Source of the DNA: Escherichia coli
GTDB taxonomy: Bacteria; Pseudomonadota; Gammaproteobacteria; Enterobacterales; Enterobacteriaceae
DNA: 64,000 nucleotides
Reading direction: 5' to 3' (one strand)
Assembly: GCF_024700885.2 (NCBI RefSeq)
Contig: NZ_CP117016.1
Below, one piece after another: positions 3,432 through 42,700 of this stretch. Positions within the stretch are counted from its first letter, which is position 1. Each line of letters begins with the position of its first letter. Made by a program: the position numbers and the translations under genes. The notes under the pieces are model-generated. The model made no database searches and was not told where the DNA came from. It was given only the letters and a program-made list of their open reading frames with translations.

Positions 3432-3537
3432 CACTATTTTATCCCTGTTGAATTTGGTTAAGCCGGTGCAGACGCGCCGGGAAACGCACACCTGAACCGG
3501 CACAATAAAATACAATACAACCCCCTGTTACTGGAGA
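3432..3537. repeat. 106-bp sequence, identical second copy at 17603-17708
   Basis: Exact match read by eye between the two loci. Confidence 0.85.
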
Positions 3538-3544
3538 AATGCCT

Positions 3545-3838
3545 GCGCCGGGGTCCGATATGGCAGTATTGTTGCAGCCTGCGGCATGGCTCAGGGGATG
3601 GATTTGATGGGCAATATGGCTCCGTTTATTCTGCGTGGTGTCACGCTGAAAGGGATTGATAGCGTCATGTTCGCGAAAGAGAAAAGAGCAGCAATCTGGC
3701 AACAGGCGGTATAGTATTTGCCAGAGTCCAGAATGGATAGTCTCACTACCGTTTATCCGCTCAGTGACGCCATCACTGTGGCTGAAAAACTTCTGAGTGG
3801 CGGAATTCGCGGTCGTGCAGTCATTCAATATAGCTAAT
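3545..3838 (+). pseudogene. C-terminal fragment of a YhdH/AcuI-like quinone oxidoreductase
   Basis: Translation ...VAACGMAQGMDLMGNMAPFILRGVTLKGIDSVMFAKEKRAAIWQQAV(stop)...LSGGIRGRAVIQYS matches the MDR oxidoreductase C-terminus; no N-terminal part, internal stop. Confidence 0.55.
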
Positions 3839-3894
3839 TAGATGGATGCCGAGCTCAGGCTTAGTATAATAAGTTTTAGGGGCTGCGGCCCCTT

Positions 3895-4551
3895 TTACTG
3901 GCCAGTTGTTGCTTCCTGAGAAGACTGATAGCGTACCGAGGTTTTGAAATAGCTCCAGAAGTCGTACACTGGCTCAGTAGAACAATATAGTTTGGAACGC
4001 ATTACCGCACCTTCCCAGCCACTCCAGAAAATAGCCGCCAGTTGTGTATTATTCATATTTGAACTTATTTCGCCTGAAGATAACGCGTCGGACAGGCAGG
4101 CCGCAACAAGTGCCTGCCAGCTCTCAAGAATATTCTGTAGTACTTTAATGAAGGATTGGGGAAGCCCCGGACTCTCCTGCATCATATTTCCAACCAGGCA
4201 GCCGCGGGTAAAATTGTATTTTTTAATCCCCTCACAGGCATCATTGATGAAATTTTCCAGACGTACCATTGGTGTGCAGGATGATTCATGTAGATGTTTT
4301 TTGAGTTTATGCTCGAAGAAACTGTCATAGGCGTTCAGAACGGTCTGAGCATAATCCTCTTTACTCTTAAAGTAGTAATAAAATGAGCCTTTAGGGACAT
4401 TGGCATTTTTAACAATGGCATCGACTCCCGTCGCAAGAAAACCATTCTGCGTCAGCAGTTCAAGGCCACTGCGGATCAGATCATTACGAGTATCTGCATA
4501 GGTACTTTCTGTCTTTCGCGGCCTTCCCCGGCCACGATTTTCGCCTGTCAT
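3895..4551 (-). CDS. TetR/AcrR-family transcriptional regulator
   Basis: N-terminal TetR HTH (RNDLIRSGLELLTQNGFLATGVDAIVKNANVPKGSFYYYFKSKE); GGAG RBS before internal ATG. Confidence 0.8.
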   Translation of the reverse strand: MTGENRGRGRPRKTESTYADTRNDLIRSGLELLTQNGFLATGVDAIVKNANVPKGSFYYYFKSKEDYAQTVLNAYDSFFEHKLKKHLHESSCTPMVRLENFINDACEGIKKYNFTRGCLVGNMMQESPGLPQSFIKVLQNILESWQALVAACLSDALSSGEISSNMNNTQLAAIFWSGWEGAVMRSKLYCSTEPVYDFWSYFKTSVRYQSSQEATTGQ

Positions 4552-4798
4552 GACCCATCTCCTACATTTTATTAACGCAAAAGAATAAGTGATTTTGCGC
4601 GAGAGCTTCAATCAGTTTATCCCCGCAGTGGCAAAGTGTTCGCTTTTGCCGACTGGACAGTGGCAGTGCCTGTCGCTACTGCGCCATCGCTGAACAGTGC
4701 AGAATTAGCAACGTTTGCTTTTGGCACAAAGCATACGCCCATTCTCACGCGAATGCTTTGCCCTTGACTTGCCAACAACCGAATCGCTTGCTCTGCAG

Positions 4799-6091
4799 CT
4801 ATGTTTTTTTATTAGAATATTCGCCACTAAATAAATTATAATAAGTTGATTTTATTAGATATCTATCAGAATCTATATGGTCAGCACGAGTTGCATGCTC
4901 TAATGTTTCAAATGCCAGGGTATGTGCGGCTTCAGCAAATATCCCTGGCCAACCTTTACTCAGCATCGACAGTCCTTTAAGGACTCTTATCTGAATCTCC
5001 CTCATACTGGCACCATCGCGCGCGACAGGTGAGAAAAAGTCTTCCAGTAGATCGTTATTCTGAAGTGGTGCAACATGTACTGAAGGATATTTCACTTCTA
5101 TTTCATCAGATTTATTCTGCGCGTAAGTGGAAAGTATACGAACACCTCTGCCAATGACATCAATGGCGGTTCCAGGATCGTTCACTGCAGGGGAAAGGGC
5201 CCGGCAGGCTATTTCGGCCATGACGCTAAGACAAAATCGAGGATCCTGAGCAAATGAACGTGCATCCGAGACAATAATCGTCTCAAGTAAATCGGTGCTG
5301 ATTGACGACTCCTGGCCCTGACTCAGGTACAAAACTGGCATGGACGGATGTATGAAACTGCCTGGCTGCGCCACGAGGTATACATGACGGGGATCATTGG
5401 TCAGCAGCTTGCTAAGTTTCACCATATCAATATATTCAACATAGCCAATCTTCTTCGGATAAACTGCAACCGTTCCTTTCGGCTGTTCATTGTTCTCAAG
5501 CCATGGATATCCGCCGAGACAGGGATTTCTTGCTCTCGCAATAAATGTTTCGATGGCCGCCTGTTCTACTTGTGCCGTTGTCTCACCAACCCTCCCCAGA
5601 GAGGTCAAATGCTGTATCCAGCGAAGCAATGTGATGAGGATTAAGGCAATGACAACCAGTGTGACAATGAATAAAATGACTCTCCCCCTTTCTCCATAAG
5701 CTCCCATATTGAGGGCAATAATCCCTACCAGACTGAAGAGAAAAGAACCGATGAAGGTGGCCAGTACATTTTGTGTGGTGACGTCTTCAACAACTAAACG
5801 CGTAGCTCTGGGAGTCACATTAGTAGTGGCTGAACCGTAGGCTGTGACCATGATACTCAGCGAAAATGTGGTCACTGCCAGCATACTCGATGCCAGTATG
5901 TTCAGAATGTTATCGACTGCTTCCGCACCAACCTTCACGGAAACCGACTCAGGTATCATTGATTTAAAAAGAATTGATAAAAGGGCCGTTATTATCGCGA
6001 CAATTGCGAATAACGTTGCCCTGAACCATAGTTTTTTAATTGTCTGCTTCAGCATCCATTTCCAGCGTGAAATCATTCTGCATTCCCTCAT
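4799..6091 (-). CDS. Membrane protein, DUF2254-like; start codon uncertain
   Basis: Several N-terminal TM helices followed by a soluble domain; family assignment from memory. Confidence 0.5.
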   Translation of the reverse strand: MRECRMISRWKWMLKQTIKKLWFRATLFAIVAIITALLSILFKSMIPESVSVKVGAEAVDNILNILASSMLAVTTFSLSIMVTAYGSATTNVTPRATRLVVEDVTTQNVLATFIGSFLFSLVGIIALNMGAYGERGRVILFIVTLVVIALILITLLRWIQHLTSLGRVGETTAQVEQAAIETFIARARNPCLGGYPWLENNEQPKGTVAVYPKKIGYVEYIDMVKLSKLLTNDPRHVYLVAQPGSFIHPSMPVLYLSQGQESSISTDLLETIIVSDARSFAQDPRFCLSVMAEIACRALSPAVNDPGTAIDVIGRGVRILSTYAQNKSDEIEVKYPSVHVAPLQNNDLLEDFFSPVARDGASMREIQIRVLKGLSMLSKGWPGIFAEAAHTLAFETLEHATRADHIDSDRYLIKSTYYNLFSGEYSNKKT

Positions 6092-6138
6092 ATTGCGGCC
6101 GGGATAATAATTGCCGCCCCCAGGACGGCATGTTGCTA

Positions 6139-8142
6139 TTAACGAACCAGGTGCAGGAAGTGCAGATGTTTTTCGTACTGGTCCAGTATGTCATTAATCA
6201 GCTGTTCCTGGTTCCAGCCCATCACATCATAATTTTGACCGCCTTCTTTGAGATAAACCTCAGCGCGATAATATCGATGTTGTTCAGTCTGCTGCTCATC
6301 ATTATCCATTGCGGCGAGCGCGAAGGTCGGTGAGATATACCCGCGAAGCCTCACTTCATATATAAAATTCAGCTCGTTGCCCAAATCGACTTCAAGACGA
6401 ATACGATCGTCGACTGCATCACTAATGTGGCTTATCGTCCCCTGCTTGTTCAGTTCCTCCTGAACCAGCGTCATGGCGGGCTGGATAACGTCGTCCATAA
6501 AACGTTTCACAAGAGATCGCTTCGGCAGATACGCGATATTGCGTAACCTTCTCTGCCAAGGAATTGGGTTACGTGCAGCCGTAGGAGCAATTGTCGCCAT
6601 GCTCAGGCTTTCACGCTTGGTCAAATCCCGGCGCAAAGCTTTTAAAAGTCCGTATATAGATATTAGTAAGATCACTGAGAAGGGCAATGCACTCGCTATT
6701 GTCACCGTTTGCAGCGCACTTAGCCCTCCGGCAAGGAGAAGCGCAATTGCAACAATGCCCATGAGCGAGGCCCAGAATATTCGCTGCCAGACGGGTGTGT
6801 TTGCCACTCCACCTGATGCCAGAGTATCCACAACCATTGCCCCCGAATCAGCAGACGTTACAAAGAAGACGATGACCATCGCCATTGCAATGAATGACAG
6901 CACAGAAGAGAACGGGAAATGCTCCAGGAAATTAAACAGGGCCAGCGCCACATCCTGCTGAACAGTATTGGCGAGGTCTGTGGCCCCCTGGTTCATAATG
7001 AGATAGATCGCGCTGTTACCAAACACCGTCATCCACATTAGCGTAAAACCCGCGGGAACAAACAGCACGCCGGTGACAAACTCGCGAATGGTTCGCCCGC
7101 GGGAGACTCGTGCGATGAACATCCCCACAAACGGCGACCATGAAAGCCACCATCCCCAGTACAGTAATGTCCAGCCCCCCAGCCAGTTGCTCGACTTGGG
7201 CTCATACGCGTAAAGGTTGAACGTTTTACTCACCAGTTCCGAAAGATAACCGCCCGTATTTTCCACAAATGACTTCAGCAGAAGCACGGTTGGTCCCAGA
7301 CACAGGACCAGCGCCAGGAGCAACAAAGCCAGACCCAGATTGAGTTCAGACAGGATACGTATTCCCTTATCCAGACCGGACACCACTGAAATCGTCGCTA
7401 ACCCCGTGATGACCACGATCAGAATTACCTGCACCGTTTCATTGATGGGCACCCCGAAAAGATGGTTCAAACCGGCATTCACCTGCAAAACACCGTAACC
7501 CAGTGATGTCGCAACGCCAAAGACCGTGCCTATAACAGCGAAAATATCAACCGCATGTCCTACAGGTCCGTATATGCGATCGCCAATAATGGGATAGAGT
7601 GCGGAGCGCAGAGTTAAAGGCAGACCGTGACGGTAACTGAAGAACGCCAGAATCAGCGCCACAATGGCATAAATTGCCCATGCGTGCAGTCCCCAGTGGA
7701 AAAAGGTCAGACGCATTGCTTCCTTAGCTGCCGCAACGGTTTCTGGAGTGCCAACGGGTGGCGAAAGATAATGCATTACAGGTTCGGCAACGCCAAAGAA
7801 CATCAGGCCGATCCCCATCCCTGCCGAAAAAAGCATCGCAAACCAGGAGTGGTAGCTGAAATCAGGCTGCGCATGGTCCGGGCCCAGCTTGATATCACCG
7901 TAGCGTGAGAGTCCAAGGAACGTGACACTCAGTAAAATCAGGGCCACAGCAAGGATGTAGAACCAGCTGGCATTCGTGAAGATTTGTTGCTGAAGTAGTT
8001 TAAAATTTTTGTCGGCGACATCCGGGAATACGGCGGCAAAGGCGACAAGAAGGAAAATTAGCAAAGCAGATGTAAAGAATACCGCTTTGTTAATCTGACT
8101 TGTAGACTTCTTTGGGATTGTATCATTTTCACTCATAATCAT
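6139..8142 (-). CDS. BCCT-family transporter (BetT-like) with long cytoplasmic C-terminal tail
   Basis: BCCT signature WTLLYWGWWLSWSPFVGMFIARVSRGRTIREF and BetT-like length (667 aa). Confidence 0.8.
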   Translation of the reverse strand: MIMSENDTIPKKSTSQINKAVFFTSALLIFLLVAFAAVFPDVADKNFKLLQQQIFTNASWFYILAVALILLSVTFLGLSRYGDIKLGPDHAQPDFSYHSWFAMLFSAGMGIGLMFFGVAEPVMHYLSPPVGTPETVAAAKEAMRLTFFHWGLHAWAIYAIVALILAFFSYRHGLPLTLRSALYPIIGDRIYGPVGHAVDIFAVIGTVFGVATSLGYGVLQVNAGLNHLFGVPINETVQVILIVVITGLATISVVSGLDKGIRILSELNLGLALLLLALVLCLGPTVLLLKSFVENTGGYLSELVSKTFNLYAYEPKSSNWLGGWTLLYWGWWLSWSPFVGMFIARVSRGRTIREFVTGVLFVPAGFTLMWMTVFGNSAIYLIMNQGATDLANTVQQDVALALFNFLEHFPFSSVLSFIAMAMVIVFFVTSADSGAMVVDTLASGGVANTPVWQRIFWASLMGIVAIALLLAGGLSALQTVTIASALPFSVILLISIYGLLKALRRDLTKRESLSMATIAPTAARNPIPWQRRLRNIAYLPKRSLVKRFMDDVIQPAMTLVQEELNKQGTISHISDAVDDRIRLEVDLGNELNFIYEVRLRGYISPTFALAAMDNDEQQTEQHRYYRAEVYLKEGGQNYDVMGWNQEQLINDILDQYEKHLHFLHLVR

Positions 8143-8246
8143 TTATTCCATTAATTAAATTCGCACTGGATAGAAGGTACTACCTCTCACAAAGTAGCAA
8201 AGTTCAACTGGCTATGCGGCGTTAATCGGAATGCATGGTGGAATGT

Positions 8247-9493
8247 TGAGGTGTACTGGCAATAGCGGACACTACCATTTGTTCTTTTTTTAAGCAGCCA
8301 TCTGATGATATTTTTCCCTGAAGGCTGCCGGGGAGATATTCCCCAGACGAGAGTGACGACGCTGACGATTGTAGAAAATCTCAATGTATTCCCGTATTAC
8401 TGAGATGGCTTCATCCCGGTTATTAAAACGATAGTGGCTCAGGCTCTCATTTTTCAGCGTTCCCCAGAAGCTTTCCATCGGAGCGTTGTCGTAACAGTTA
8501 CCTTTACGCGACATTGATGTTTTCAGACCAAACTGCTCCTGTATGACACGGTAATCGTATGCGCAGTACTGTGAACCTCGATCAGAGTGGTGGATTAGCC
8601 CGGCAGGTGGGCGCTGGCTCCTGAGCGCCATAAACAGGGCTTTACCTGTCAGCTCTTTTGTCATGCGCTCTCCCATGGCGTAGCCGACAATTTCGCACGT
8701 ATAAACATCTTTGATGCCAGCGAGGTACAACCATCCCTCCTGTGTGGCAACATACGTCAGGTCCGCCACCCAGACCTGATTTGGTGCTGTAGGAGCGAAC
8801 GTCTGGTTCAGCAGATTTGGCGCAACTGGCAGATTGTGGTTCGAGTTCGTAGTCGCTCTGAACTTGCGTTTCTGCTTACAGCGTAGCCTTAGCTCCTTAC
8901 GAAGACGTGCCAGTCGGTCACGACCAACGATGATGCCATTCTCTGCCAGCTCCGTCTGGAGCTGCCGGGTTCCATATGTTTCGCGAGTGCGGATATGCGC
9001 CACCTTAATCTCCAGTTTTAGCCGCTCATCACTTTGTTTTCTGTCTGAGGGTTCATGCTGTACCCAGTTGTAATAACCGCTCCTGGATACACCAAATACC
9101 TGACACATCGCTTCAATGGGAAATTGTTGTCGCCATTGTTCGATTAACGCGTATTTTTCAGCGACTCCTGTGCAATTTAATATATCTCGCTCAAGGCGAG
9201 CTTCATTTAACGCCTTACGCAGTTGCAGAATTTCAGATTCCAGTTCAGCCACCGTGCGGGAACCAGGAGTACCGAGCCCTTTTCTGGCGGCGGTAACCCA
9301 TTGTCCTAAAGTGCCTTCAGGAAGAGATAATCGGGAAGCACCTTCACTGATCGAAAGTTGATTTTCAAGAACCGTTCTGACAGCTTCGGCTTTGAACTCT
9401 TTAGAGTAACGTTGGGTTTTTCTGCTCATTATTAGCTCCTTCTGATGCCATTCTATTTCAGGAAGGAGTGTCCGTTAAACTCAGGCTACCTCA
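8247..9493 (-). mobile_element. IS3-family insertion sequence (IS600-like), about 1.25 kb
   Basis: Imperfect terminal inverted repeats TGAGGT...CGGACACT at both ends flanking the transposase ORF. Confidence 0.7.
8290..9429 (-). CDS. IS3-family transposase, OrfA and OrfB fused in one 379-aa frame
   Basis: OrfA-like HTH and leucine zipper (LQLRKALNEARLERDIL) continuous with DDE OrfB (DLTYV, HSDRGSQY, GNCYDNAPMESFW). Confidence 0.85.
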   Translation of the reverse strand: MSRKTQRYSKEFKAEAVRTVLENQLSISEGASRLSLPEGTLGQWVTAARKGLGTPGSRTVAELESEILQLRKALNEARLERDILNCTGVAEKYALIEQWRQQFPIEAMCQVFGVSRSGYYNWVQHEPSDRKQSDERLKLEIKVAHIRTRETYGTRQLQTELAENGIIVGRDRLARLRKELRLRCKQKRKFRATTNSNHNLPVAPNLLNQTFAPTAPNQVWVADLTYVATQEGWLYLAGIKDVYTCEIVGYAMGERMTKELTGKALFMALRSQRPPAGLIHHSDRGSQYCAYDYRVIQEQFGLKTSMSRKGNCYDNAPMESFWGTLKNESLSHYRFNNRDEAISVIREYIEIFYNRQRRHSRLGNISPAAFREKYHQMAA

Positions 9494-9609: not shown

Positions 9610-10554
9610 TCAAGGGTACGGGTCCGCTTCGTTTGATTTGCGTGTTTTTAACAATTTTAAAACCCAGACATACTGTTCCGGATGTGGCCCCACCAAAATT
9701 TCCACTGTTTTGTTCATTTGTCGGGCAATCATTTTATTGTCCGCGCTGGCAATGCAAGCATCCATTGGTGGCCGAATTTCAATAGTCAGGAGATGTTTTT
9801 TTTCATCATAAACCGGGAAAAGTGGTATAATCATAGCCTGACTGATGTTCATCAGACGTCCAATGATTGGTAATGTCGCTTTATAGGTCGCAAAAAAATC
9901 AGCAAATTCACTGTATTCAGGACCATGATCCTGATCTGGGAGGTAATATCCCCAGTATCCCTGGCGTACTGACTGAATAAATGGTTTTATCCCATCCTCC
10001 CGGGCATGTAAGCGCCCCCCGAATTTACGCCGTACTGAATTCCAGACATAATCAATCACTGGATTTCGTTGCTGATGAAACATGGCGGCCATTTTTTTTC
10101 CCTGAGCTGCCAGCAACATTGCAGGAATATCCACGCTCCAGCCATGGGGAACCAGAAAAATCACATTTCTATTATTGTGTCGAATTTCCTCAAGAATTTC
10201 GAGGCCTTTCCAGAACACTCGTTTCTGGAACTTTTCCGGACCACGAATTGCCAGTTCTGCCATCATCACTATGGATTGCAATGCTGTGGCAAACATTTTG
10301 TCGACAATTATTTCCCGTTCTGTATCACTCTTTTCTGGGAAACAAAGCGATAAATTAATCGTCGCCCTGCGACGAGCTTTTTTGCTCAATCTGCCCACCC
10401 AACGCCCTATTTTTGCCAAGACAGGATCTCTGAATGAAGGGGGAAACATTGAAATACCTGCAATCATTCCCAAAAGGAACCATGTAGACCAGTAAACAGG
10501 GGAAAGGTAATTTTTCTTAAATTCAGGAATAAACTCAGATTTATATTTTTTCAT
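9610..10554 (-). CDS. Lipid A secondary acyltransferase, LpxM/MsbB family (msbB2-like paralog)
   Basis: Lauroyl/myristoyl acyltransferase motifs (FLVPHGWSVD, YLPDQDHGPE); virK fragment immediately upstream as in shf-virK-msbB2 modules. Confidence 0.8.
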   Translation of the reverse strand: MKKYKSEFIPEFKKNYLSPVYWSTWFLLGMIAGISMFPPSFRDPVLAKIGRWVGRLSKKARRRATINLSLCFPEKSDTEREIIVDKMFATALQSIVMMAELAIRGPEKFQKRVFWKGLEILEEIRHNNRNVIFLVPHGWSVDIPAMLLAAQGKKMAAMFHQQRNPVIDYVWNSVRRKFGGRLHAREDGIKPFIQSVRQGYWGYYLPDQDHGPEYSEFADFFATYKATLPIIGRLMNISQAMIIPLFPVYDEKKHLLTIEIRPPMDACIASADNKMIARQMNKTVEILVGPHPEQYVWVLKLLKTRKSNEADPYP

Positions 10555-10618: not shown

Positions 10619-11233
10619 TTAATTTAAATTCTGATGTTCTGAGTGTACAGGATATGCATCCAAAGAGCGGATAGTAGTTTCATGGATATAATCCAGCAAA
10701 GCGTATCGTTTTCGGTACTCAGAGCGTTTTTTACTGGCTATATCGCTTAGCGGCTTTCGAATCACCTGGGTTGGTAATCTGTACCAGTCACCACAGGTTT
10801 TTCCTGCTACAGACTCCCAGAAATCACTATAGACCGCAACAAAGGTTTTGCGTTTCTGATACCAGTATCTCAATTGCCGGAAAACATGACTGTGCTCACT
10901 GACTGCCAGACACTCAGAGATATTGCAAGCTTTCATCAACGCACAAAATGCTTCAAAAATAATCCGTTTTGGGAAAATCCCATAACAGGCCCGGGTTGCG
11001 CACCGAATAACATCAGGTCCGGTATTTTTAGGGGCTCCCTGTAATCCGCCAATAAAAGCAATGTGTCCATTTTGAGTCAGAATGACTGAAAATGTTAACC
11101 GGGCAATAACTGTTTTATTGTAAAACAATGACAACATCAACTCTCCTTCCCGGTCAAAACCACTGGGAGAACACTGGATATCAAAATTCTCTCCATCTTT
11201 CCCGATGAATTGGACTAATGATACCGATTTTTG
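10619..11233 (-). pseudogene. virK: virK-like (DUF535) gene, C-terminal part only, cut by IS1
   Basis: Open frame runs from the IS1 boundary (...FIGKDGENFDIQCSP...) to the stop at 10619; N-terminal half absent. Confidence 0.55.
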
Positions 11234-32796: not shown

Positions 32797-33706
32797 CTTT
32801 TGCACCAGAACCAGTGAAGATCACTCACCCGATTTCACTTCCCTGACGTCAGCCTGAACACGGCTGGCGTTTTCATTTATAAACAGAAAGGAAAAATGAT
32901 GATGTCAGATACCACACTCTCCCGCCCGGAGGTGGTCAGCGGGCATACGGACGTTATCTATTCCACCTCAGTCTGCCACATTCTGGCTGTACGAAAGAGT
33001 ACACTGTTGCCAATCGACACAATTATCCGGCATCAAGTAAGCGATATCAGTTAACCGATATAGATGGGGAAGATGCTTTTATCCGGATTGGTTCTATCGC
33101 GATGGTGCGAGTACCACTTGATGCAATGGAGCCTGTCGAGGAAGATGACGAGTAACAGAGCTCGGTATCTCAATCAGGACCTGATTGTCCTGGTTCGATG
33201 CCGAAAACCAGTGATTTTTCGTGTTGGTATCTGTGTTGGTATAGGATGGTGTTGTTTATTATTAACAATTTTAAATCATGAGGTTAAATCGCATGTTTGA
33301 GTCCGGCCTTCGCACCACATCGTATGCAAATCGAGTCGCTCAAGGGCGGCTTTTTTTGTGCCTGTGTTTTCACTACTTTGTTTGTATGTAACGCTGATAA
33401 TCTAAGAACTTCGGAAGCCCCATTCCCATCAATGATGTTCATTCATCATCCTGAAAATTAAGTAGATATAAAACTTCATTGCCTTGGTCTAATGGCTCAG
33501 GAAATAGATTGCATTTAGCGAGTGGCATTCTTAATGTGCCATTGTTTAGCCATGAAACGATGCGTAAAATTGCTGATTTTATGTGTCAAAGGCCCGCAAC
33601 CGGAGATGTCCTTACTTCAAGGATCAACCACTATTGGCGTATCCTTTTACTATCTTGATTCAATTCAGCAGGTTATCGTCAAAAGTACAGCGAAGAGAGA
33701 GAAAAG

Positions 33707-36598
33707 ATGATTGGTACAACACCTTATCATGCGAAATATTTTGCGCATGAACTTTCCATTCTCCATTCAAACAATGGGGTGGACCGTCTGTCTCAATCGC
33801 TGTTTGATGCAAGCGTAGATCTAAATCCTCATCAAATTGAGGCGGCTCTTTTTGCTATTGAAAATCCGCTAAGCAAAGGTGTTGTGCTTGCCGATGAAGT
33901 TGGTTTAGGTAAAACCATTGAAGCGGGGTTAGTGCTTTGCCAGTTGTGGGCTGAAAGAAAACGTAAACTGTTGATCATTTGTCCTGCTTCACTGCGTCGC
34001 CAATGGGCGAGCGAGTTACAGGAAAAGTTCAATCTACCTTCTCAGGTGTTGGACGCGAAAACGTATAGCCAGCTTCAAAAAGAAGGGATCCATAATCCCT
34101 TAAATAATAAATCGATCACTATCATGTCATACCACTATGCTGCTCGGTTAGAAGAAAAATTGGTGGCTGAAATGTGGGATCTGGTTGTTATCGACGAAGC
34201 CCATAAACTGCGTAATGCTCATCGAGAAAGTAACAAAATGGGGCAAGCGTTAAAGCGTGCGCTTGATGGGCGGAAAAAATTACTACTGACCGCAACGCCT
34301 TTACAGAATTCGTTAATGGAACTGTATGGCATGTCGACGCTTATAGATGAACATACCTTCGGCGAAGTTAAAGCGTTCAGAAAGCAATATATGCAGGCAG
34401 ATAGCGATATTGCGGAGTTGAAGGGGCGATTGTCGCGTTTTATCAAACGAACTTTACGCAAGAATGTGCTGGAGTACATCAAGTATACAGAACGTAAAGC
34501 GATCACTATTCCTTTCTATCCGAGCGAACAGGAGCAGGATCTTTATGAACGCGTACAAAAATTGCTTGAACGTGAGGATAGCTATGCCTTACCAAAACGA
34601 CACCGGCATCTGACGGGGCTTATTCTCAGAAAGCTACTTTCCTCAAGTACGAAAGCTGTATTGAATAACTTGCAGATCCTTAAGAGTCGTTTAGAAAGGT
34701 TAAAGCTGGAAGGTATCGTTGAAGATGATATGAACATCATCCAACAGATCATAATGGATGACGATCTTGAAGATGACATCGTGGAAGATGCCGAATCAGT
34801 GGCTTTAGATACCGAGTGCAAAGTTGTCGATTCAGACGCGCTTCAGGCAGAAATCAATGAGCTGGAATCACTCATTGTCAAAGCAGAACAGATTGGCACT
34901 GATACCAAATCAAAAGAGTTGCTTTCTGGCCTGGAGCAAGGTTTTGCACAGCTTGCCGAAATGGGGGCTGCAAAAAAAGTCATCATCTTCACGGAGTCAA
35001 TGCGAACTCAACAGTATCTTGCACATTTTCTGGAAAACAATGGCTACCAGGGGAAAGTAGTAACCTTTAGTGGCACAAACAATACACCGCAGGCAAACAA
35101 GATCTACCAGCAATGGCGCGAGGAATATCAGGGATCTTCTCGTATTACCGGGTCGGCGCAAATTGATAAACGCTCGGCTTTGATCGACCACTTCAAAGAT
35201 CATGCTGAAATCATGATAGCTACAGAAGCTGCAGCTGAAGGGGTGAACCTGCAATTTTGTTCGCTACTGATCAATTACGATTTACCCTGGAACCCACAAC
35301 GCATTGAACAGCGTATTGGACGTTGTCACCGATACGGGCAAAAATTTGATGTGGTTGTTATTAACTTCCTCAATCAGCGAAACCAGGCCGATCAACGCGT
35401 TCTTGAACTCTTAACTGAAAAGTTCAGCCTGTTTGATGGCGTGTTTGGCGCATCGGATAGTGTGCTTGGCAGCATAGAAAATGGTGTGGATTTTGAAAAA
35501 AGGATCCAGTCAATTTATGAGTCATGCCGTACCCCCGAGGAGATAGAGCTGGCTTTTGAAAGGTTGCAGAAAGAGCTGGAAGATGAAATCAATCTCAAGA
35601 TGCAGAAGACGCAAGAACAGTTGCTTGAGCATTTTGATGAAGATATTCACGATATCCTTAAAATAAGGCTTGATGAAGCTCGGGAGCGTCTGGATAAAGT
35701 CGGTCGTTGGTTTTGGGCCGTGACCTGTCAGCAGCTCAAACAATATGCTGATTTTGATCATGAGCATCATCGTTTCACTTTACGTGAATCAGTAAATGAA
35801 CTGCCTGTCGGGCAGTACCAGCTGTTGCGCAAAGATGGTAGGCAAAATAGTGCGTTACAAATGCAGGATCACCACAGTTTTGCATATCGGATCAATCATC
35901 CGCTGGGTGAGTACGTCATTGAGGGGGCTAAGGTCCAGGAGACGAAAACAGCTGAAGTCATCTTCGATTACAGTAACCACACAACGAAAGTCTCGGTGGC
36001 TGAGCAGCTGAAAGGGCAATCAGGGTGGTTAACACTAAATTTGCTTACTGTTGATGCGTTTAACAGGCAGCAATTTTTAGTCTTTACCGCAAAAACTGAC
36101 AACGGACGTGTGGTAGATGGTGAAGCTTGTAAACGTCTGTTCAACTTGTCTGCAATAACCAACGAAAAGCTGGATAATTCGGCAAGTTCAGATGCATTAC
36201 CTGATGACTTGATCTTACTCAAGAACAGGCAAATTGACGCCAGACTTGCGGAAGTTCTGGAGCAGAACAATGTCCTTTTTGAAGCTGAAAGAGATAAGCT
36301 GGAAAAATGGGCTGAAGATATGATCTTTGCGGCGGAAGAAGCATTACGCGATACCAAAATGCAAATCAAGTCGTTAAAGCGAGAAGCCAGACTGGCGCAA
36401 TCGATGGAAGAACAAAAGCAAAACCAGGAAAAGCTGAAGCTACTGGAACGGCAGCAGAAACGCCAACGTATGGAAATTTTTGACATTGAAGATGAGATCG
36501 CTGACAAGCGGGATGAACTCATCAGTGCCCTTGAAGAGCGGATGAAGCAAAAAACGGATATCACCGAGCTTTTTTCCATCCGCTGGAAAGTTATTTAA
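33707..36598 (+). CDS. SNF2-family DEAH-box ATPase/helicase (963 aa) with C-terminal coiled-coil tail
   Basis: Walker A DEVGLGKT (33893-33916), motif II VVIDEAHKLRN (DEAH 34193-34204), motif III LLLTATPLQNS, helicase-C NLQFCSLLINYDLPWNPQRIEQRIGRCHRYGQ; AGAGAGA RBS. Confidence 0.85.
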   Translation: MIGTTPYHAKYFAHELSILHSNNGVDRLSQSLFDASVDLNPHQIEAALFAIENPLSKGVVLADEVGLGKTIEAGLVLCQLWAERKRKLLIICPASLRRQWASELQEKFNLPSQVLDAKTYSQLQKEGIHNPLNNKSITIMSYHYAARLEEKLVAEMWDLVVIDEAHKLRNAHRESNKMGQALKRALDGRKKLLLTATPLQNSLMELYGMSTLIDEHTFGEVKAFRKQYMQADSDIAELKGRLSRFIKRTLRKNVLEYIKYTERKAITIPFYPSEQEQDLYERVQKLLEREDSYALPKRHRHLTGLILRKLLSSSTKAVLNNLQILKSRLERLKLEGIVEDDMNIIQQIIMDDDLEDDIVEDAESVALDTECKVVDSDALQAEINELESLIVKAEQIGTDTKSKELLSGLEQGFAQLAEMGAAKKVIIFTESMRTQQYLAHFLENNGYQGKVVTFSGTNNTPQANKIYQQWREEYQGSSRITGSAQIDKRSALIDHFKDHAEIMIATEAAAEGVNLQFCSLLINYDLPWNPQRIEQRIGRCHRYGQKFDVVVINFLNQRNQADQRVLELLTEKFSLFDGVFGASDSVLGSIENGVDFEKRIQSIYESCRTPEEIELAFERLQKELEDEINLKMQKTQEQLLEHFDEDIHDILKIRLDEARERLDKVGRWFWAVTCQQLKQYADFDHEHHRFTLRESVNELPVGQYQLLRKDGRQNSALQMQDHHSFAYRINHPLGEYVIEGAKVQETKTAEVIFDYSNHTTKVSVAEQLKGQSGWLTLNLLTVDAFNRQQFLVFTAKTDNGRVVDGEACKRLFNLSAITNEKLDNSASSDALPDDLILLKNRQIDARLAEVLEQNNVLFEAERDKLEKWAEDMIFAAEEALRDTKMQIKSLKREARLAQSMEEQKQNQEKLKLLERQQKRQRMEIFDIEDEIADKRDELISALEERMKQKTDITELFSIRWKVI

Positions 36599-36603
36599 TT
36601 GAT

Positions 36604-39600
36604 TTGAAAGAGAAAATAATGAGTAAGTACAACGAATTAGTTAAGAAGCTAAAAGAAATTTTTCAGATTGATCGACCAGAACTGGATTTCGGTATTTATC
36701 GTATTTTAAATGCACGTGCTGATGAAATTAACGACTATCTGGATAATAAGCTGAAGGCCAAAATCCAGTCTGCGCTGGCGGATGCAGGAAATGCCAATAA
36801 ATCAGAATTAGAACATCAGTTGCAACTGACAATAAAAGCGGCAACTGATGCGGGTGTGGACCCTGCTGATAGCCCGAAAGTACAGGAGCTTAAAAAGCAA
36901 CTGGCGGCTATGGCATCCGGAGCAAATGAGCATGAAAATGCAGTATTTTCCCATCTGCTGACTTTCTTTTCGCGTTATTATGACAACGGCGATTTTATCA
37001 GCAAACGCCGTTATAAAGGTAATACCTACGCCATCCCTTATTCTGGCGAAGAAGTGATGTTGCACTGGGCAAATAAGGACCAGTACTACATTAAAAGCGG
37101 TGAAAACTTTGCTAATTATTCATTTAAATTAGATGATGGTCGTAAAGTTAGCTTTAAATTGCTCGCAGCGGACACAGCAAAAGATAACCGTAAAGATAAT
37201 GAATTAGATCGCTGCTTTGTACTTATTGAGCCGCATGTTCGTACCAAAATTGATGAAGAAGGCGATGAGTACGAACAAGAATATAAGCCAGTAGAAGTGG
37301 TGAAAACTTCATCTGTGGTTGACGGTAAACTCGTTGAAACAGAAGAGTTAGTTATTCACTTCGAATATAAGGCCATGAAAAAGGGCACTAAGCAGGATGC
37401 TTTAGTGCAGTCCGCTATTTCAACAATTCTGGCTGATAAAACAGTTCAACAGCATTGGGTTGATCTTGCTAAACGTGCGCCAACAGAAAAAAATCCGTCA
37501 CGTACAGAGTTGGAGCGTCATCTTACAACTTATACCCAGCGTAATACAGCAGACTACTTTATTCATAAAGATCTCGGTGGTTTTTTAACTAACGAACTGG
37601 ATTTTTATATTAAAAATGAAGTAATGAATCTCGATAATGTGCAAAATGCAGAAGTGTTTGCCAATATTGAGAAACAATTGCGCATGATTCAATGTTTGCG
37701 TACTGTTGCGCTGGAACTCATTGCATTTTTGGCACAAATTGAGAATTTCCAGAAGAAACTTTGGACTAAGAAGAAGTTTGTTGTTTCAAGTAATTACTAT
37801 ATTACTATGGACAAAATAAGTTCAGAGTTTTACAGTGAAATAATTAATAATGAAAAAATAGTCCAAGAATGGATTGAATTAGGCATCTTAGATGAGAAGC
37901 CATCTACCTCTGATGTGGAGTTGCTCAAGTTTGCAACAGTTAATTTATCTCATTTAAACGGAGATCTAAGGAAAAAAATATTAAATAGTATCAATGATAT
38001 TGACGATAATGTTGATGGCGTTTTTATTAATGGTGATAATTATCAAGCGTTAAATCTTTTGAAGAAAAAATATAATTCCGTAATTGATTGTGTCCATATA
38101 GATCCACCATATAACACAGATACTAGTGGTTTTTTATATAAAAATAGCTTTAAGCATTCAAGTTGGCTGAGTATGATGGATAGCCGTTTGCTTTTTGTTA
38201 AAAATTTACTCAGTGAAAATGGTGTATTTTTTTGTCATATTGATGAAAATGAATATGAGCGACTTTATTTAATTAATAAACAGTTAGGTCTTATCGATGC
38301 AGGGACAATTATTTGGGATAAACGCAATCCCATGAATGGTGGTAGTGGCATTGCGATTCAACATGAATATACTACTTGTTTTACAAAGAACATGATTTCT
38401 ATTAATAAGAAAAATGAGAATGTATTAGAAATACTCGAATATGCAAAATTAATTAAGAATAAATATCCTGTAATTAACAGTGAAGCAAAGAAAAAATTTT
38501 ATGATTGGGTAACAAAGAATAAAAAACTTACTGGAGGTGAACAAGCTTACAAATATATCGATGAGAAAGGTCGAGTGTACCAGAGTGTCAGCCTCCGTGC
38601 CCCAGAGCCAAGGACTGACAAGAAATTCTATATACCATTAATTCATCCAGTTACCGGGAAACCATGCGCTATGCCACCAAATGGTTTTTCTCGTACCCCA
38701 GAAACATTAAAAGATATGATGGATAAGGGGGATATACTATTTGGTGTTGATGAAACAACGCAACCTAGACAGAAAGCATATTTATATGCTGACGCTAAAA
38801 AGCAAATAACATCAATAATTCAGGATGCTAAAAAAGGAAAAACTCAAACAACTCATCTTGGAATTGATTTTCCTTATTGTCACTCAACTTCTTTATATAA
38901 TTATTTAATTGGGAGTGCATCTCATAATAAAAATGAGATAATATTAGATTTTTTTGCTGGTTCAGGAACAAGTGGCCACTCAGTCATAGAGTTGAATCGT
39001 AAGGATGCGGGTTCAAGGAAATATATACTTGTTGAACAGGGGGAGTATGCACAAAATGTAACTTTAAGCAGGTTGAGAAAAGTTATATTCAGTAGCAATT
39101 GGAAAGATGGTAAAGCTATGGATTCAACGACAGGCTCATCTCATATACTTAAAGTTATGAAAATAGAAAGTTACGAAGATGTATTAAATAGCCTTCGATT
39201 TGAACAACAAAAAGAAATAAAAGATCTTTTTGATACAGTGAATGAATCAGTAGCAAATGAGTATTTAATAAAATATATGCTTGAAACAGAAAGCAAAGGT
39301 TCACTACTCAGTACTGATAATTTCAAAAAACCATTTAACTACGAAATGGATATTGCGACGGATTCCGCCGGTGCCACTGAGCGTAAAAACATCGATTTAG
39401 TTGAAACTTTCAACTATCTCATTGGTTTACATGTGAAATCCATCGAATCCAATATCGAACGTGGCTATGTGCGTGTTGAAGGAATGCTACCAACAGGCGA
39501 GCGTACCCTTATTCTGTGGCGCGATTGCGACAAGATCGGTTATGAAGAATTGAATAAATATGCCAACCGATTCGATTTATATGCAAAAGAAAACACGTTC

Positions 39601-39741
39601 GACGTTATCTATATCAATGGCGATCATAACTTACCTACCGCCTTTACTGTTGATGAAGAAGACGGCGAGATTGTTCGTAGCCTGAAAATCCGCCAGATCG
39701 AACCTGAATTCTTGAACCTGATGTTTGCGGAGGAGGTTTAA
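36604..39741 (+). CDS. Large beta-class DNA methyltransferase (N6-adenine/N4-cytosine type; 1045 aa) with about 490-aa N-terminal extension
   Basis: Motif IV HIDPPYNTD (38101-38112) precedes motif I ILDFFAGSGTSG (38951-38977), the order seen in Type III Mod; starts 6 bp after the SNF2 stop. Confidence 0.8.
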   Translation: MKEKIMSKYNELVKKLKEIFQIDRPELDFGIYRILNARADEINDYLDNKLKAKIQSALADAGNANKSELEHQLQLTIKAATDAGVDPADSPKVQELKKQLAAMASGANEHENAVFSHLLTFFSRYYDNGDFISKRRYKGNTYAIPYSGEEVMLHWANKDQYYIKSGENFANYSFKLDDGRKVSFKLLAADTAKDNRKDNELDRCFVLIEPHVRTKIDEEGDEYEQEYKPVEVVKTSSVVDGKLVETEELVIHFEYKAMKKGTKQDALVQSAISTILADKTVQQHWVDLAKRAPTEKNPSRTELERHLTTYTQRNTADYFIHKDLGGFLTNELDFYIKNEVMNLDNVQNAEVFANIEKQLRMIQCLRTVALELIAFLAQIENFQKKLWTKKKFVVSSNYYITMDKISSEFYSEIINNEKIVQEWIELGILDEKPSTSDVELLKFATVNLSHLNGDLRKKILNSINDIDDNVDGVFINGDNYQALNLLKKKYNSVIDCVHIDPPYNTDTSGFLYKNSFKHSSWLSMMDSRLLFVKNLLSENGVFFCHIDENEYERLYLINKQLGLIDAGTIIWDKRNPMNGGSGIAIQHEYTTCFTKNMISINKKNENVLEILEYAKLIKNKYPVINSEAKKKFYDWVTKNKKLTGGEQAYKYIDEKGRVYQSVSLRAPEPRTDKKFYIPLIHPVTGKPCAMPPNGFSRTPETLKDMMDKGDILFGVDETTQPRQKAYLYADAKKQITSIIQDAKKGKTQTTHLGIDFPYCHSTSLYNYLIGSASHNKNEIILDFFAGSGTSGHSVIELNRKDAGSRKYILVEQGEYAQNVTLSRLRKVIFSSNWKDGKAMDSTTGSSHILKVMKIESYEDVLNSLRFEQQKEIKDLFDTVNESVANEYLIKYMLETESKGSLLSTDNFKKPFNYEMDIATDSAGATERKNIDLVETFNYLIGLHVKSIESNIERGYVRVEGMLPTGERTLILWRDCDKIGYEELNKYANRFDLYAKENTFDVIYINGDHNLPTAFTVDEEDGEIVRSLKIRQIEPEFLNLMFAEEV

Positions 39742-39743
39742 GA

Positions 39744-42700
39744 ATGGCTAAAAAACCGACCACCGGTAAAGCTGTTAAAAAAGAGACAAACAGCAAACTG
39801 AGCTTTCATAAGCAACTGGTTTTGAACCGCTTTATGTTCCATTTTTTTAAAGATGGCACATTGCAAGGTTTAAAAAATCGGTTAGGTGAAGATCGCTTTG
39901 AAGGCATCCATGAAGATGGCCAAAGCTTGTTCTTCCATGAGCTGAGTAACTATTTATTCGAGGTCGATCTTATCGATCTCGATGAACTGCGTCGTTACGA
40001 TCTCAATATCGTACAGCACTGGCAGCAGATAACTGAGCACCGTAATCGCAAAGAAGACACCGTGCTGAATATGAAATATTTTCAGTACTTGTCGCTTCTG
40101 TTTACCGAGATCTACCTGGACTGGTACTTCAATCGTAAACAGCAATTACTCGATGGGCTAAATAACGAGCTGGCAGCATACAATGCTGAAAATGATAAAA
40201 CAGCAAAAGACCGGGCTAATCAGTTCAAATCATACATTCTAGATGACTTGAATAAACTTGCATACTGGAACGCTACCGGTTCGGGTAAAACACTGCTATT
40301 GCATGTCAATATTTTGCAATATTTACATTATTTCCAGAACGGTAATACCCACCATTACCCGGATAAAATCATCCTGCTTACGCCGGATGAACGCCTGTCG
40401 AAGCAACATTTAGATGAGCTGGAAAACTCAGGATTTACCCAATACCAGTTATTCGATAAGAGTAAATCTGCGCCCTTCAAAGGCACGATTGAAGTTATTG
40501 ATATCAATAAACTTGCCGATGAAATGGGTGACAAAACTGTTGCCGTTGAGGCATTTGAAGGCAACAATCTGGTTCTGATTGATGAAGGGCATAAAGGCAC
40601 CGGAAGTGCTGCTGGTGCCTGGATGCGCCGTCGTGACAAATTAACACGTGACGGATTTGCGTTTGAATATTCAGCAACTTTTGGCCAGGCAGTAGCCGGT
40701 GGCAATAATGTTGAGGCAGTTGAAACAGAAATTCAGAAGAAAAAAGCAAAGCTGCTTTTTGAAACAACGGCCTTAGGTAAACTGAACGAAGAAGAGTTAG
40801 CGCAAATAGCATTAACCAGCGAAGAAAAACGAGATGCGCGTATTCAGGCGACGCGAGAGGTCTATGGAAAATCGATTCTGTTCGATTACTCCTATAAATT
40901 CTTCTATGAGGATGGTTATGGTAAAGAATCACTGATTCTTAACCTTAATCCTGAAGAGGATAAAAAAGATGAGCGTCGGTATGAGTATTTTACCGCGTGT
41001 TTGCTCAGCTTTTATCAGCAACAATATTTATTCAATAAGAATAAAGAAAAATTAAGTGAATTTAATATCGAAAAACCGCTGTGGGTTTTTGTCGGTAATA
41101 CGGTAAGTGGTGAAGATTCAGACATTCACGCAGTATTGCGTTTTTTAGCATGGTTTTTAAACCACGAAACGCAGGCAAAAGCGTGGATTAACGATCTCAT
41201 TAAAAATAAAGCGCGAATCCTCGATACCAAAGAGCGTAACATTTTTGAAAATCGCTTTACTGCACTAATGAACGCTCCGGAAGATATCTACGCAGATATT
41301 CTTTCTCGCTTGTTTAACACCACTCACTCTGGTCAGCGACTGCGAGTTCTGAATTTAATAGGCAGTAAAGGTGAACTGGCATTACAGGTTGGTGAGGCCG
41401 AACCGTTTGGCCTTATCAATATTGGTGATGCACCGTCTCTTTACAAAATGTGTGAAGAGGATACGACATTTGATTATCAGAGAGATGATTTTGCAAAGTC
41501 ACTCTTTCATACGTTAAATGACAAAGACTCGCGACTACATATTTTGATCGGCTCGCGAAAATTTACTGAAGGCTGGAGCAGTTGGCGCGTCTCAACGATG
41601 GGATTGCTCAATATGGGCCGTGGAGAAGGTTCACAGATCATTCAGTTATTTGGTCGTGGCGTACGCCTTAAAGGTCGCAATTATTCTTTGAAACGCAGTA
41701 CACCCGGTGAGCGTCCGAAAGGGTTGCATCTGGAAAAATTAGAGACACTGAATGTATTCGGTGTACGTGCCGATTACATGGCAACCTTTAAACAATACCT
41801 GGAAGATGAAGGGATTACGCCAAGTGACGAGATCCTTGAGCTGAATTTTGAAACTCGGCCAAATATGCCAGCAACCAGGCTTAAAACACTTAAGCTTAAA
41901 GATGGTTATAAAGATAATCAAAGACTCGGCTTTAAACGTGTCTATTTTCCCGAATTGTATGAAGTTCCTGCTGATTTTCAGGGGAAAATTAAGCAGCCGC
42001 ATATTAAGCTGGACTTATACCCGAAACTTGAGTCGATTGATACCAGCAGAAAAGGGGACAATACTCCGGTTAACGTGCGCAATGAAGCGAAGTTAGATTA
42101 TAAAATCATTAGTGCATTTGATTTTGATCGGCTTTATCTCGCCATTCAGAATTATAAACTACAACGCGGCTGGTCAAATTTACGTGTGGATAAACAACGT
42201 TTGATCGACTTTTGTACCGGTAAGACAAAGATCGGAAATAGTTGGTATACCCTTTTGATTCCAGCTTCAGAGCTTGAGATTAAGCAATATGCAGATATTG
42301 CTAAGCAGGAAGATATTATGCTTCGTCTGCTGACTGATTATACTGATCGCTTTTACAACACCTTGAAAAATGCTTATGAAGGTCAGTTTTATGAAGTCAC
42401 GCAGGTGAAAGAAGATGATCCTGGTATGATCAAAATGTACCATTTCGAGATCGAAGAAACTGATGATGGGTTGGCTTATGCCAGTCGGCTGGAACAATTA
42501 CAACAATTGGTCATCGACGGCGAAATCGGTAAAGCAAAATCCTGGAGTGCATCCGGGATGGTTGCTATTACCTTTGATAAACATCTCTATTACCCGCTTC
42601 TTTCGATTGAAAAAAATGCCAATATACCGCTAAAAATGCGACCGGCAGCACTTGGTGCGCCAAGCGAGATTACTTTTGTTCAGGATCTTCAGTCTTTTGT

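Follow-up and report, generated by a model that had tools for sequence, protein, structure and literature searches.

Tn6062 is an IS1 composite transposon (IS, insertion sequence) found on IncHI1 PST6 plasmids of Salmonella Typhi. Its cargo was described as two "putative transporters", SPAP0105 and SPAP0106 (betU), which were cloned as one 3405-bp fragment on pACYC184, and this two-gene fragment allowed S. Typhi to grow in 0.8 M NaCl (Holt 2011, PMC3139670). The same study cited betU as an uptake system for glycine betaine and proline betaine that was originally discovered in pyelonephritis Escherichia coli, and a review table lists BetU of E. coli, crediting Ly et al. 2004. Among other carriers of the BCCT family, BetS is listed with the same two substrates as BetU, and the C-terminal domain of Pseudomonas syringae BetT (PsBetT), a frataxin-like domain that is swapped in the trimer, has been proposed to be autoinhibitory until osmotic activation. 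BetS of Sinorhizobium meliloti has a long C-terminal extension and is coupled to Na+. AcuR, a regulator of the TetR family, is known from Rhodobacter sphaeroides and Halomonas to be derepressed by acrylate. Relatives of both kinds of system lie side by side in a 64,000-nt stretch of the E. coli contig NZ_CP117016.1 (assembly GCF_024700885.2; the whole stretch is hereafter called the window), where genes for a BCCT transporter, a DUF2254 protein and a TetR-family regulator occupy positions 3895-8142. The finding is that two unrelated two-gene modules are joined there in an E. coli accessory island. Very probably, the locus as a whole is best explained as a betU-DUF2254 module standing beside a separate, decayed acuR-acuI module, with BetU being the known betaine importer.

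The BCCT protein of the window was identical at 663 of 665 positions to that of the S. Typhi IncHI1 plasmid NZ_CP029934, on which the elements run in the order IS1, BCCT, DUF2254, IS1. The downstream gene was the same as well, the DUF2254 protein sharing 96.9% identity with the Tn6062 copy, and the two genes matched the 3.4-kb two-gene fragment; the DUF2254 gene is the equivalent here of SPAP0105. Both Tn6062 primers of Holt 2011 matched NZ_CP029934 exactly (3498-3519 and 6879-6898) and bracketed betU and the DUF2254 gene on that plasmid. In the window, the reverse primer matched at 4809-4828 with one mismatch, and the forward primer had no match within 3 mismatches because the window allele differs at the primer site. 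Judged by its sequence against the Tn6062 copy, the BCCT protein is BetU. Unlike in Tn6062, the pair does not lie between two copies of IS1, but has an IS3-family element upstream and an acuR-acuI remnant downstream, in a chromosomal island; since no IS1 pair brackets betU-DUF2254, the window holds the Tn6062 cargo and not the transposon itself. A preliminary description of the locus had left the substrate of the transporter unassigned, a view that cannot be kept because the transporter is BetU, described in the literature as a glycine betaine/proline betaine importer. The same description had proposed a second BetT-like locus distinct from the core betT, and in this it was right (42-43% identity to BetT of E. 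coli K-12): a second osmolyte locus is really there, and it was known before as the BetU cargo of Tn6062.

Names in the databases were discordant, one and the same protein bearing four labels across records ("choline BCCT transporter BetT", "BCCT family transporter", "Glycine betaine/proline betaine transporter BetS" and "secondary glycine betaine transporter BetU"). The last of these was given to a Klebsiella copy (97% identical) in two GenBank records and in a plasmid transcriptome paper, and Prokka-type annotations, as judged from product wording, used BetS or glycine betaine transporter. The commonest RefSeq label, BetT, is at odds with the literature description of BetU, and "choline BCCT transporter BetT" hides a characterised betaine transporter. 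As the transporter and its osmotolerance phenotype are already published, little changes for biology at large; the remaining interest lies in this misleading annotation and in the DUF2254 partner, which travels with betU and is often found beside ion or osmolyte transporters.

The betU and DUF2254 genes form one mobile unit, since the same ~3.5 kb recurs with different flanks on ~1,470 plasmids, at a prophage end of Enterobacter asburiae, in a Serratia island and on E. coli chromosomes. This module takes in ~103 nt before the betU ATG and ends 77 nt beyond the stop codon of the DUF2254 gene. Homology to a Klebsiella pneumoniae plasmid (L100) covered 4722-8245 at 96.3%, and homology to E. asburiae (L012) covered 4722-8201 at 89%. 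Different IS (IS3-family, IS1, IS26, IS600) adjoin the module ~100-270 nt upstream of betU, depending on the copy. In the window it is the IS3-family element that stands directly upstream of betU, its end meeting the module at ~8245; its transposase gene is context and lies outside the betU-DUF2254 unit. The element aligned to TGCTACTTT was conserved over six contexts (TGCTACAAT, TGCTAAAAT, TGCTATGAT, TGCTATTCT, TGCTACTCT), and this retained TGnTAnnnT motif before betU is a candidate extended -10 promoter. Promoter and terminator scans returned sites no more numerous than in shuffled sequence.

Among the plasmids of PLSDB, 1536 matched the pair and 1470 of them covered at least 80% of it; 1264 of the 1536 were from Klebsiella and 1208 were conjugative. 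About 2% of the sequenced plasmids of this collection carry the module, including IncFIB/IncFII Klebsiella plasmids, and on one IncFIB/IncFII K. pneumoniae plasmid it was located ~3.7 kb from the sil genes. The pair was also matched in 1964 of 5426 complete E. coli genomes (36%), 1378 of which covered at least 80% of it, so that about a third of complete E. coli genomes carry BetU. Prevalence of betU in the work of Ly and colleagues in 2004 is said to have been about one third. At least 859 E. coli genomes held the composite that also includes acuR and the IS3 end. Because the core betT was present in 5182 of the 5426 genomes, most carriers hold both transporters, and BetU is an addition and not a replacement. 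No nucleotide match to the module was obtained in the phage genome collection, though PHROGs has near-full-length families for both proteins. In E. asburiae (L012/L013, 7178-11278), betU-DUF2254 came right after prophage tail-fibre and resolvase/invertase genes and adjoined a Lyase_1/ASL_C gene, probably purB; the pair looks there like moron-type cargo of a prophage end.

Features of the locus, with positions in the 64,000-nt window
Feature	Position	Strand	Remarks
betU (BCCT)	6139..8142	-	667 aa from first ATG; PF02028, 660 bits
DUF2254 gene	4799..6091	-	longest open reading frame; PF10011, 312 bits
acuR (TetR family)	3895..4551	-	218 aa, intact; NF051457 equivalog
acuI remnant	3538..3834	+	tblastn match; convergent with acuR
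Mobile betU-DUF2254 module	4722..8245	-	~3.5 kb; extent of DNA homology
Seam between the modules	4714..4722		boundaries of blastn homology
IS3-family transposase gene	8290..9429	-	Pfam rve and HTH_Tnp_1; RefSeq annotation
GC-rich hairpin GGGGC-CGCA-GCCCC	3879..3892		between the convergent acuR and acuI stops; read from sequence
Candidate extended -10 element TGCTACTTT (TGnTAnnnT)	8191..8199	-	~57 nt upstream of the betU ATG

All three open reading frames (ORFs) of the interval 3895-8142 were intact and on the minus strand, as first described, but the transporter gene does not lie between the other two: on the coding strand the genes follow one another as BCCT, DUF2254, TetR, with the DUF2254 gene in the middle. 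The gap between betU and the DUF2254 gene is 47-62 nt and that between the DUF2254 gene and acuR is 247 nt. A BetU of 665 aa, in agreement with the length of the RefSeq call, starts at the ATG at 8136, and the DUF2254 protein may start at 6091 (longest ORF) or at 6076 (425 aa, the length of the RefSeq call). For acuR, the longest ORF (3895-4611) begins at a TTG at 4611; the true start is assigned to the ATG at 4551, which has AGGAG 8 nt upstream and gives 218 aa. The hairpin between acuR and acuI is probably the terminator of these convergent genes, and it was absent from the output of the terminator scan of the window.

The TetR-family protein belongs to the other module. It carried the domains TetR_N and TetR_C_13, passed the AcuR equivalog NF051457 with 265.8 bits (cut-off 247) and had 3BRU as its best solved relative (166 bits). 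With the BetI model it scored 29 bits (cut-off 201), and no other BetT-like gene was present in the window; the transporter is not, then, the core betT in its divergent betIBA context. The partner of acuR is a fourth element lying outside the interval first described, a remnant of acuI of 99 codons that corresponds to codons 229-327 of 327 in this YhdH-family gene, has an in-frame stop and was 90% identical by tblastn to residues 229-327 of the Klebsiella grimontii protein. Intact acuI orthologues pass the AcuI (acrylyl-CoA reductase) equivalog NF051456. Convergent acuR-acuI pairs were found in K. grimontii, Pectobacterium, Vibrio, Raoultella, Klebsiella aerogenes and one further enterobacterial assembly, i.e. 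in six contexts outside E. coli from at least four genera (loci L007-L010, L097 and L099, plus L095 in E. coli). None of these six other contexts had a BCCT or DUF2254 gene adjacent to the pair, and the surroundings differed each time.

A palindrome, TAGACGATCGGTC(A/T)A (TAGAC-N5-GTCWA), was found ~55 nt upstream of acuI in all four aligned loci, and the intact E. coli copy of acuI also has it upstream; it may be the AcuR operator. Its sequence is similar to the AcuR operators published for R. sphaeroides and Halomonas, TAATAGAC-N6-GTCTATTA and TATAGA-N7-TCTATA. In an intact module, AcuR would control the acrylyl-CoA reductase gene through this palindrome. The enterobacterial module shares with the one in R. 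sphaeroides (acuR-acuI-dddL) and Halomonas a regulator that passes the AcuR equivalog and has 3BRU as best solved relative, and a partner that passes the AcuI equivalog, but its two genes are convergent and do not form an operon, its acuR is preceded by a Shine-Dalgarno sequence instead of being leaderless, and no dddL accompanies them. In the window, acuI and the palindrome are moreover deleted: the gene has lost its 5' 70%, neither its promoter nor the palindrome upstream is left, and TAGACGATCGGTCWA had no match in the whole window with up to 3 mismatches. AcuR is orphaned here because acuI and its palindrome were deleted.

Homology with the intact E. coli copy of 027_SK3 (L095) stops at 3538, the window type being a deletion that ends there. 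The acuR module was carried by 1273 genomes of E. coli, of which 4 had acuI whole and 1269 had lost it; in other E. coli it was split by IS100. Stages of acuI decay were captured in 027_SK3 (L095, 5579-10861) and in L096 (8878-11793). As neighbours of the intact four-gene block, an Orn/Lys/Arg decarboxylase gene was observed between two genes for basic amino acid/polyamine antiporters. The island AcuI was 51% identical to the product of the core gene yhdH, the acrylyl-CoA reductase of K-12, which has been linked to acrylate resistance; redundancy with yhdH may explain the decay of the island copy.

BetU matched PF02028 with 660 bits (cut-off 27), residues 21-506 covering profile positions 1-485 of 485. 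Its transmembrane (TM) domain extends to about residue 511 and is followed by a BetT-type C-terminal domain (residues 512-667), so the long C-terminal tail of the preliminary description stands, as residues ~512-667 align with the C-terminal domains of BetT proteins (36% identity with E. coli BetT, EcBetT, and 40% with P. syringae BetT). Among relatives with solved structures, PsBetT (8YBQ) was the best and matched over the full length (649 bits), followed by TmaT (515), the TM domain of EcBetT (471), BetP (330), DddT (231) and CaiT (170). BetU missed the glycine-betaine BCCT equivalog of NCBIfam (592 bits; cut-off 650) and was far below the NCBIfam models of CaiT and YeaV. By its substitution pattern, BetU is under very strong constraint, the ratio of non-synonymous to synonymous substitution rates (dN/dS) being ~0.02 against the E. 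asburiae copy and the protein being 95% identical to the Serratia copy despite saturated synonymous sites.

With the BetT proteins of E. coli (b0314) and P. syringae (8YBQ), BetU shares the BCCT fold, the frataxin-like C-terminal domain and the tryptophan prism, but it is only 43-45% identical to them overall, stands outside a betIBA context and has the motif GMGIG (G108-M-G-I-G112, of the type GxGxG) in place of GIGID/GISIT; its reported substrates are betaines and not choline. In the alignment, Gly112 takes the position of D108 of EcBetT and Ser213 that of D210 of PsBetT, the proposed proton sites of these BetT proteins. The TmaT paper ties the GxGxG motif to Na+-coupled BCCT carriers; since GMGIG is present and both proposed proton-site acids are absent, transport by BetU is more likely to be coupled to Na+ than to H+. 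By analogy with PsBetT, osmotic control of BetU is expected to act through the BetT-type frataxin-like C-terminal domain. In the substrate pocket of BetU the aromatic box (W150, W155, Y158 and the WWxxW prism) is complete. The literature describes BetU as an importer that, under hyperosmotic stress, takes up glycine betaine and proline betaine and supplements ProP/ProU and the choline route via core BetT; high osmolarity would switch the carrier on through the C-terminal domain, and uptake would be driven by Na+. A BCCT protein of the S. meliloti megaplasmid pRmeGR4d, possibly BetS itself, was 49.6% identical to BetU over residues 16-664 and, like BetU, has the GMGIG motif and a long C-terminal domain, but its gene has no DUF2254 neighbour within 5 kb.

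If the RefSeq name were taken at its word, the BCCT protein would be a second choline/H+ symporter, a BetT paralogue that feeds choline to BetA and BetB. NF007399, the NCBIfam model of the BetT subfamily (not an equivalog), was indeed passed with 751 bits (cut-off 695), BetU aligned with E. coli and P. syringae BetT over the full length, C-terminal domain included, and the WWxxW tryptophan prism and the TM3 glycine that contacts choline are conserved. This reading is nevertheless quite unlikely: the literature knows BetU as a betaine transporter and the Prokka-type names point the same way, the proton-site residues of both BetT types are absent where the Na+-associated GxGxG is present, and the TM domain is about equally far from TmaT (49% identity), PsBetT (47%) and EcBetT (46%). 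Because it is 46-49% identical to all three alike, the substrate is not assignable from the nearest characterised relatives.

The TetR gene adjoins the BCCT and DUF2254 genes on the same strand, this arrangement is a fixed feature of at least 859 genomes of E. coli, and TetR regulators often adjoin transporter genes; the three genes might hence form a single locus, as first proposed, in which the TetR protein senses a quaternary amine and controls a BCCT-DUF2254 operon. Such a unit is very unlikely, given that the regulator belongs to the AcuR equivalog and has acuI as its conserved partner and that the substrate of the transporter is described in the literature. The homology of betU-DUF2254 ends at 4722 and that of acuR-acuI spans 4714-3538 (blastn), so the modules meet at a seam few bases wide. 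Moreover, acuR was next to betU-DUF2254 in none of the plasmid, prophage-end and other-genus copies examined, an AcuR homologue was found within 6 kb in 0 of the 80 DUF2254 loci scanned, and an AcuR-type palindrome occurs nowhere in the window. No supporting evidence for AcuR control of betU was found, and the adjacent regulator is not to be read as that of betU. The AcuR annotation also prompted a reading of the four genes as one dimethylsulfoniopropionate (DMSP)/acrylate unit, in which a DddT-like BCCT carrier brings in DMSP or a similar propionate (sulfonium or ammonium) and the resulting acrylyl-CoA is detoxified by AcuR-AcuI. Four E. coli genomes do carry an intact betU-DUF2254-acuR-acuI block, DMSP importers exist among BCCT proteins (DddT), and AcuR and AcuI act in DMSP and acrylate catabolism. 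Against this, the modules are apart in every non-E. coli genome examined, DddT is distant from BetU (231 bits versus 649 for PsBetT), no DMSP lyase gene is among the annotated neighbours in the reference strain or the intact block, and nearly all carriers have lost acuI and kept betU. The idea, which is exceedingly improbable, was dropped since the modules are separable and the BCCT protein is BetU. Some points do weigh against two separate modules with BetU as betaine importer. The substrate range comes from citations of Ly et al. 2004 (in Holt 2011 and a 2025 review) and from database names, the osmotolerance phenotype of Holt 2011 was obtained with both genes cloned jointly, and NCBI model NF007399 files BetU in the BetT choline-transporter subfamily. 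BCCT substrates are not readable from sequence similarity, according to the DddT structure paper, and Na+ coupling is deduced from motifs. In E. coli all four genes arrived as one block, as the four intact genomes attest, and acuR follows the DUF2254 gene on the same strand with no convincing terminator detected between them in the scan; read-through, or co-option of AcuR for betU, is possible.

The DUF2254 protein matched PF10011 over residues 20-374 (profile positions 3-366 of 368). Four hydrophobic segments, predicted to be N-terminal membrane helices, precede a soluble domain of ~265 aa that was confidently modelled by AlphaFold (mean predicted local distance difference test, pLDDT, 80.7 for the model). 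The protein would consist of four membrane helices and a cytoplasmic domain and is probably co-transcribed with betU. No relative with a solved structure was found, PADLOC gave no defence-system match for the BCCT, DUF2254 or TetR protein, and the DUF2254 literature found was limited to knot-topology statistics and an old automated prediction, with no functional study.

Neighbours of DUF2254 genes were surveyed in 80 diverse proteobacterial loci (L014-L093), adjacency being counted within 400 bp and without correction for phylogeny. An ion or osmolyte transporter gene was adjacent in 26 of the 80, counts not being corrected for shared ancestry; the classes found were NhaA (12), BetU/BetT-like BCCT (9), ClC (7) and CPA1 (5), and beyond the 9 BCCT loci an NhaA, ClC or CPA1 exchanger was adjacent in 17. 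Some DUF2254 genes lie between NhaA and ClC genes, and on an Agrobacterium plasmid (L102) a K+ channel, a BCCT and a DUF2254 gene are consecutive. Adjacent BCCT and DUF2254 genes were always co-oriented, in both gene orders and in both Enterobacterales and Rhizobiaceae. This neighbour pattern hints at a role of DUF2254 in ion or osmolyte homeostasis.

It can be entertained, tentatively and as something rather unlikely, that DUF2254 is a new kind of membrane component of such homeostasis (a regulator, a sensor or an ion pathway), working here with BetU and elsewhere with NhaA, ClC and CPA1 exchangers and K+ channels. The adjacency in 26 of 80 loci, with BCCT genes found in either order in two bacterial groups, speaks for it, and so does the sole functional test (Holt 2011), in which betU and the DUF2254 gene were present together. 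It is weakened by the disregard of shared ancestry in the neighbour counts, by BetU orthologues of K. aerogenes and Serratia liquefaciens that stand without a DUF2254 neighbour, and by the ~586 complete E. coli genomes in which the pair is matched over less than 80% of its length, where all three sampled had betU whole and DUF2254 truncated. Strain BL21 (L104, NZ_CP170101.1, 6007-8405) is an example of such a genome, its betU being intact and its DUF2254 gene cut by IS911. As betU is whole and DUF2254 truncated in these genomes, DUF2254 is dispensable for the retention of betU, and beside BetU it is at most a dispensable accessory.

The preliminary description had placed the genes in an island, and their surroundings bear this out, with IS and pseudogenes on the flanks and a block present in only part of E. 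coli. The first 17 kb of the window were 99.8% identical to E. coli strain CUVET21-37 (the reference strain), in which a deoK-type ribokinase, a DeoR regulator, an IS3-family transposase, an lpxM pseudogene, a virK fragment, IS1 and IS66 surround the locus. The flanking debris in the window likewise includes the IS3-family transposase, the lpxM pseudogene, the virK fragment and further IS remnants, and the core genes nan, fim, uxu and yji come after this IS-rich accessory stretch.

Just past the IS3 element upstream of betU, a second copy of lpxM (msbB-like lipid A myristoyltransferase; 9610-10554, minus strand), which is annotated as a pseudogene in the reference strain, was found together with a truncated virK (10619-11140, minus strand). 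Such lpxM copies and virK genes are typical of the virulence plasmids of Shigella and enterohaemorrhagic E. coli. On the other side, genes for a ribokinase of the PfkB family and, in divergent orientation, a DeoR regulator occupy 378-2386, and in the reference strain this pair is followed by an IS-split transporter gene of the MFS family and an aldose epimerase gene; we take the stretch to resemble the deoK operon with which pathogenic E. coli use deoxyribose. Farther along the window, a plus-strand stretch of low GC content (0.32-0.45) at ~33700-43100 was collinear with a cluster of the reference strain that has genes for a protein related to SNF2, for a site-specific DNA methyltransferase and for a DEAD/DEAH helicase. 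Next to it, a gene for a phosphorothioated-DNA-binding restriction endonuclease was located at ~43800-44700, and the whole stretch from ~33700 to 44700 looks like a defence island.

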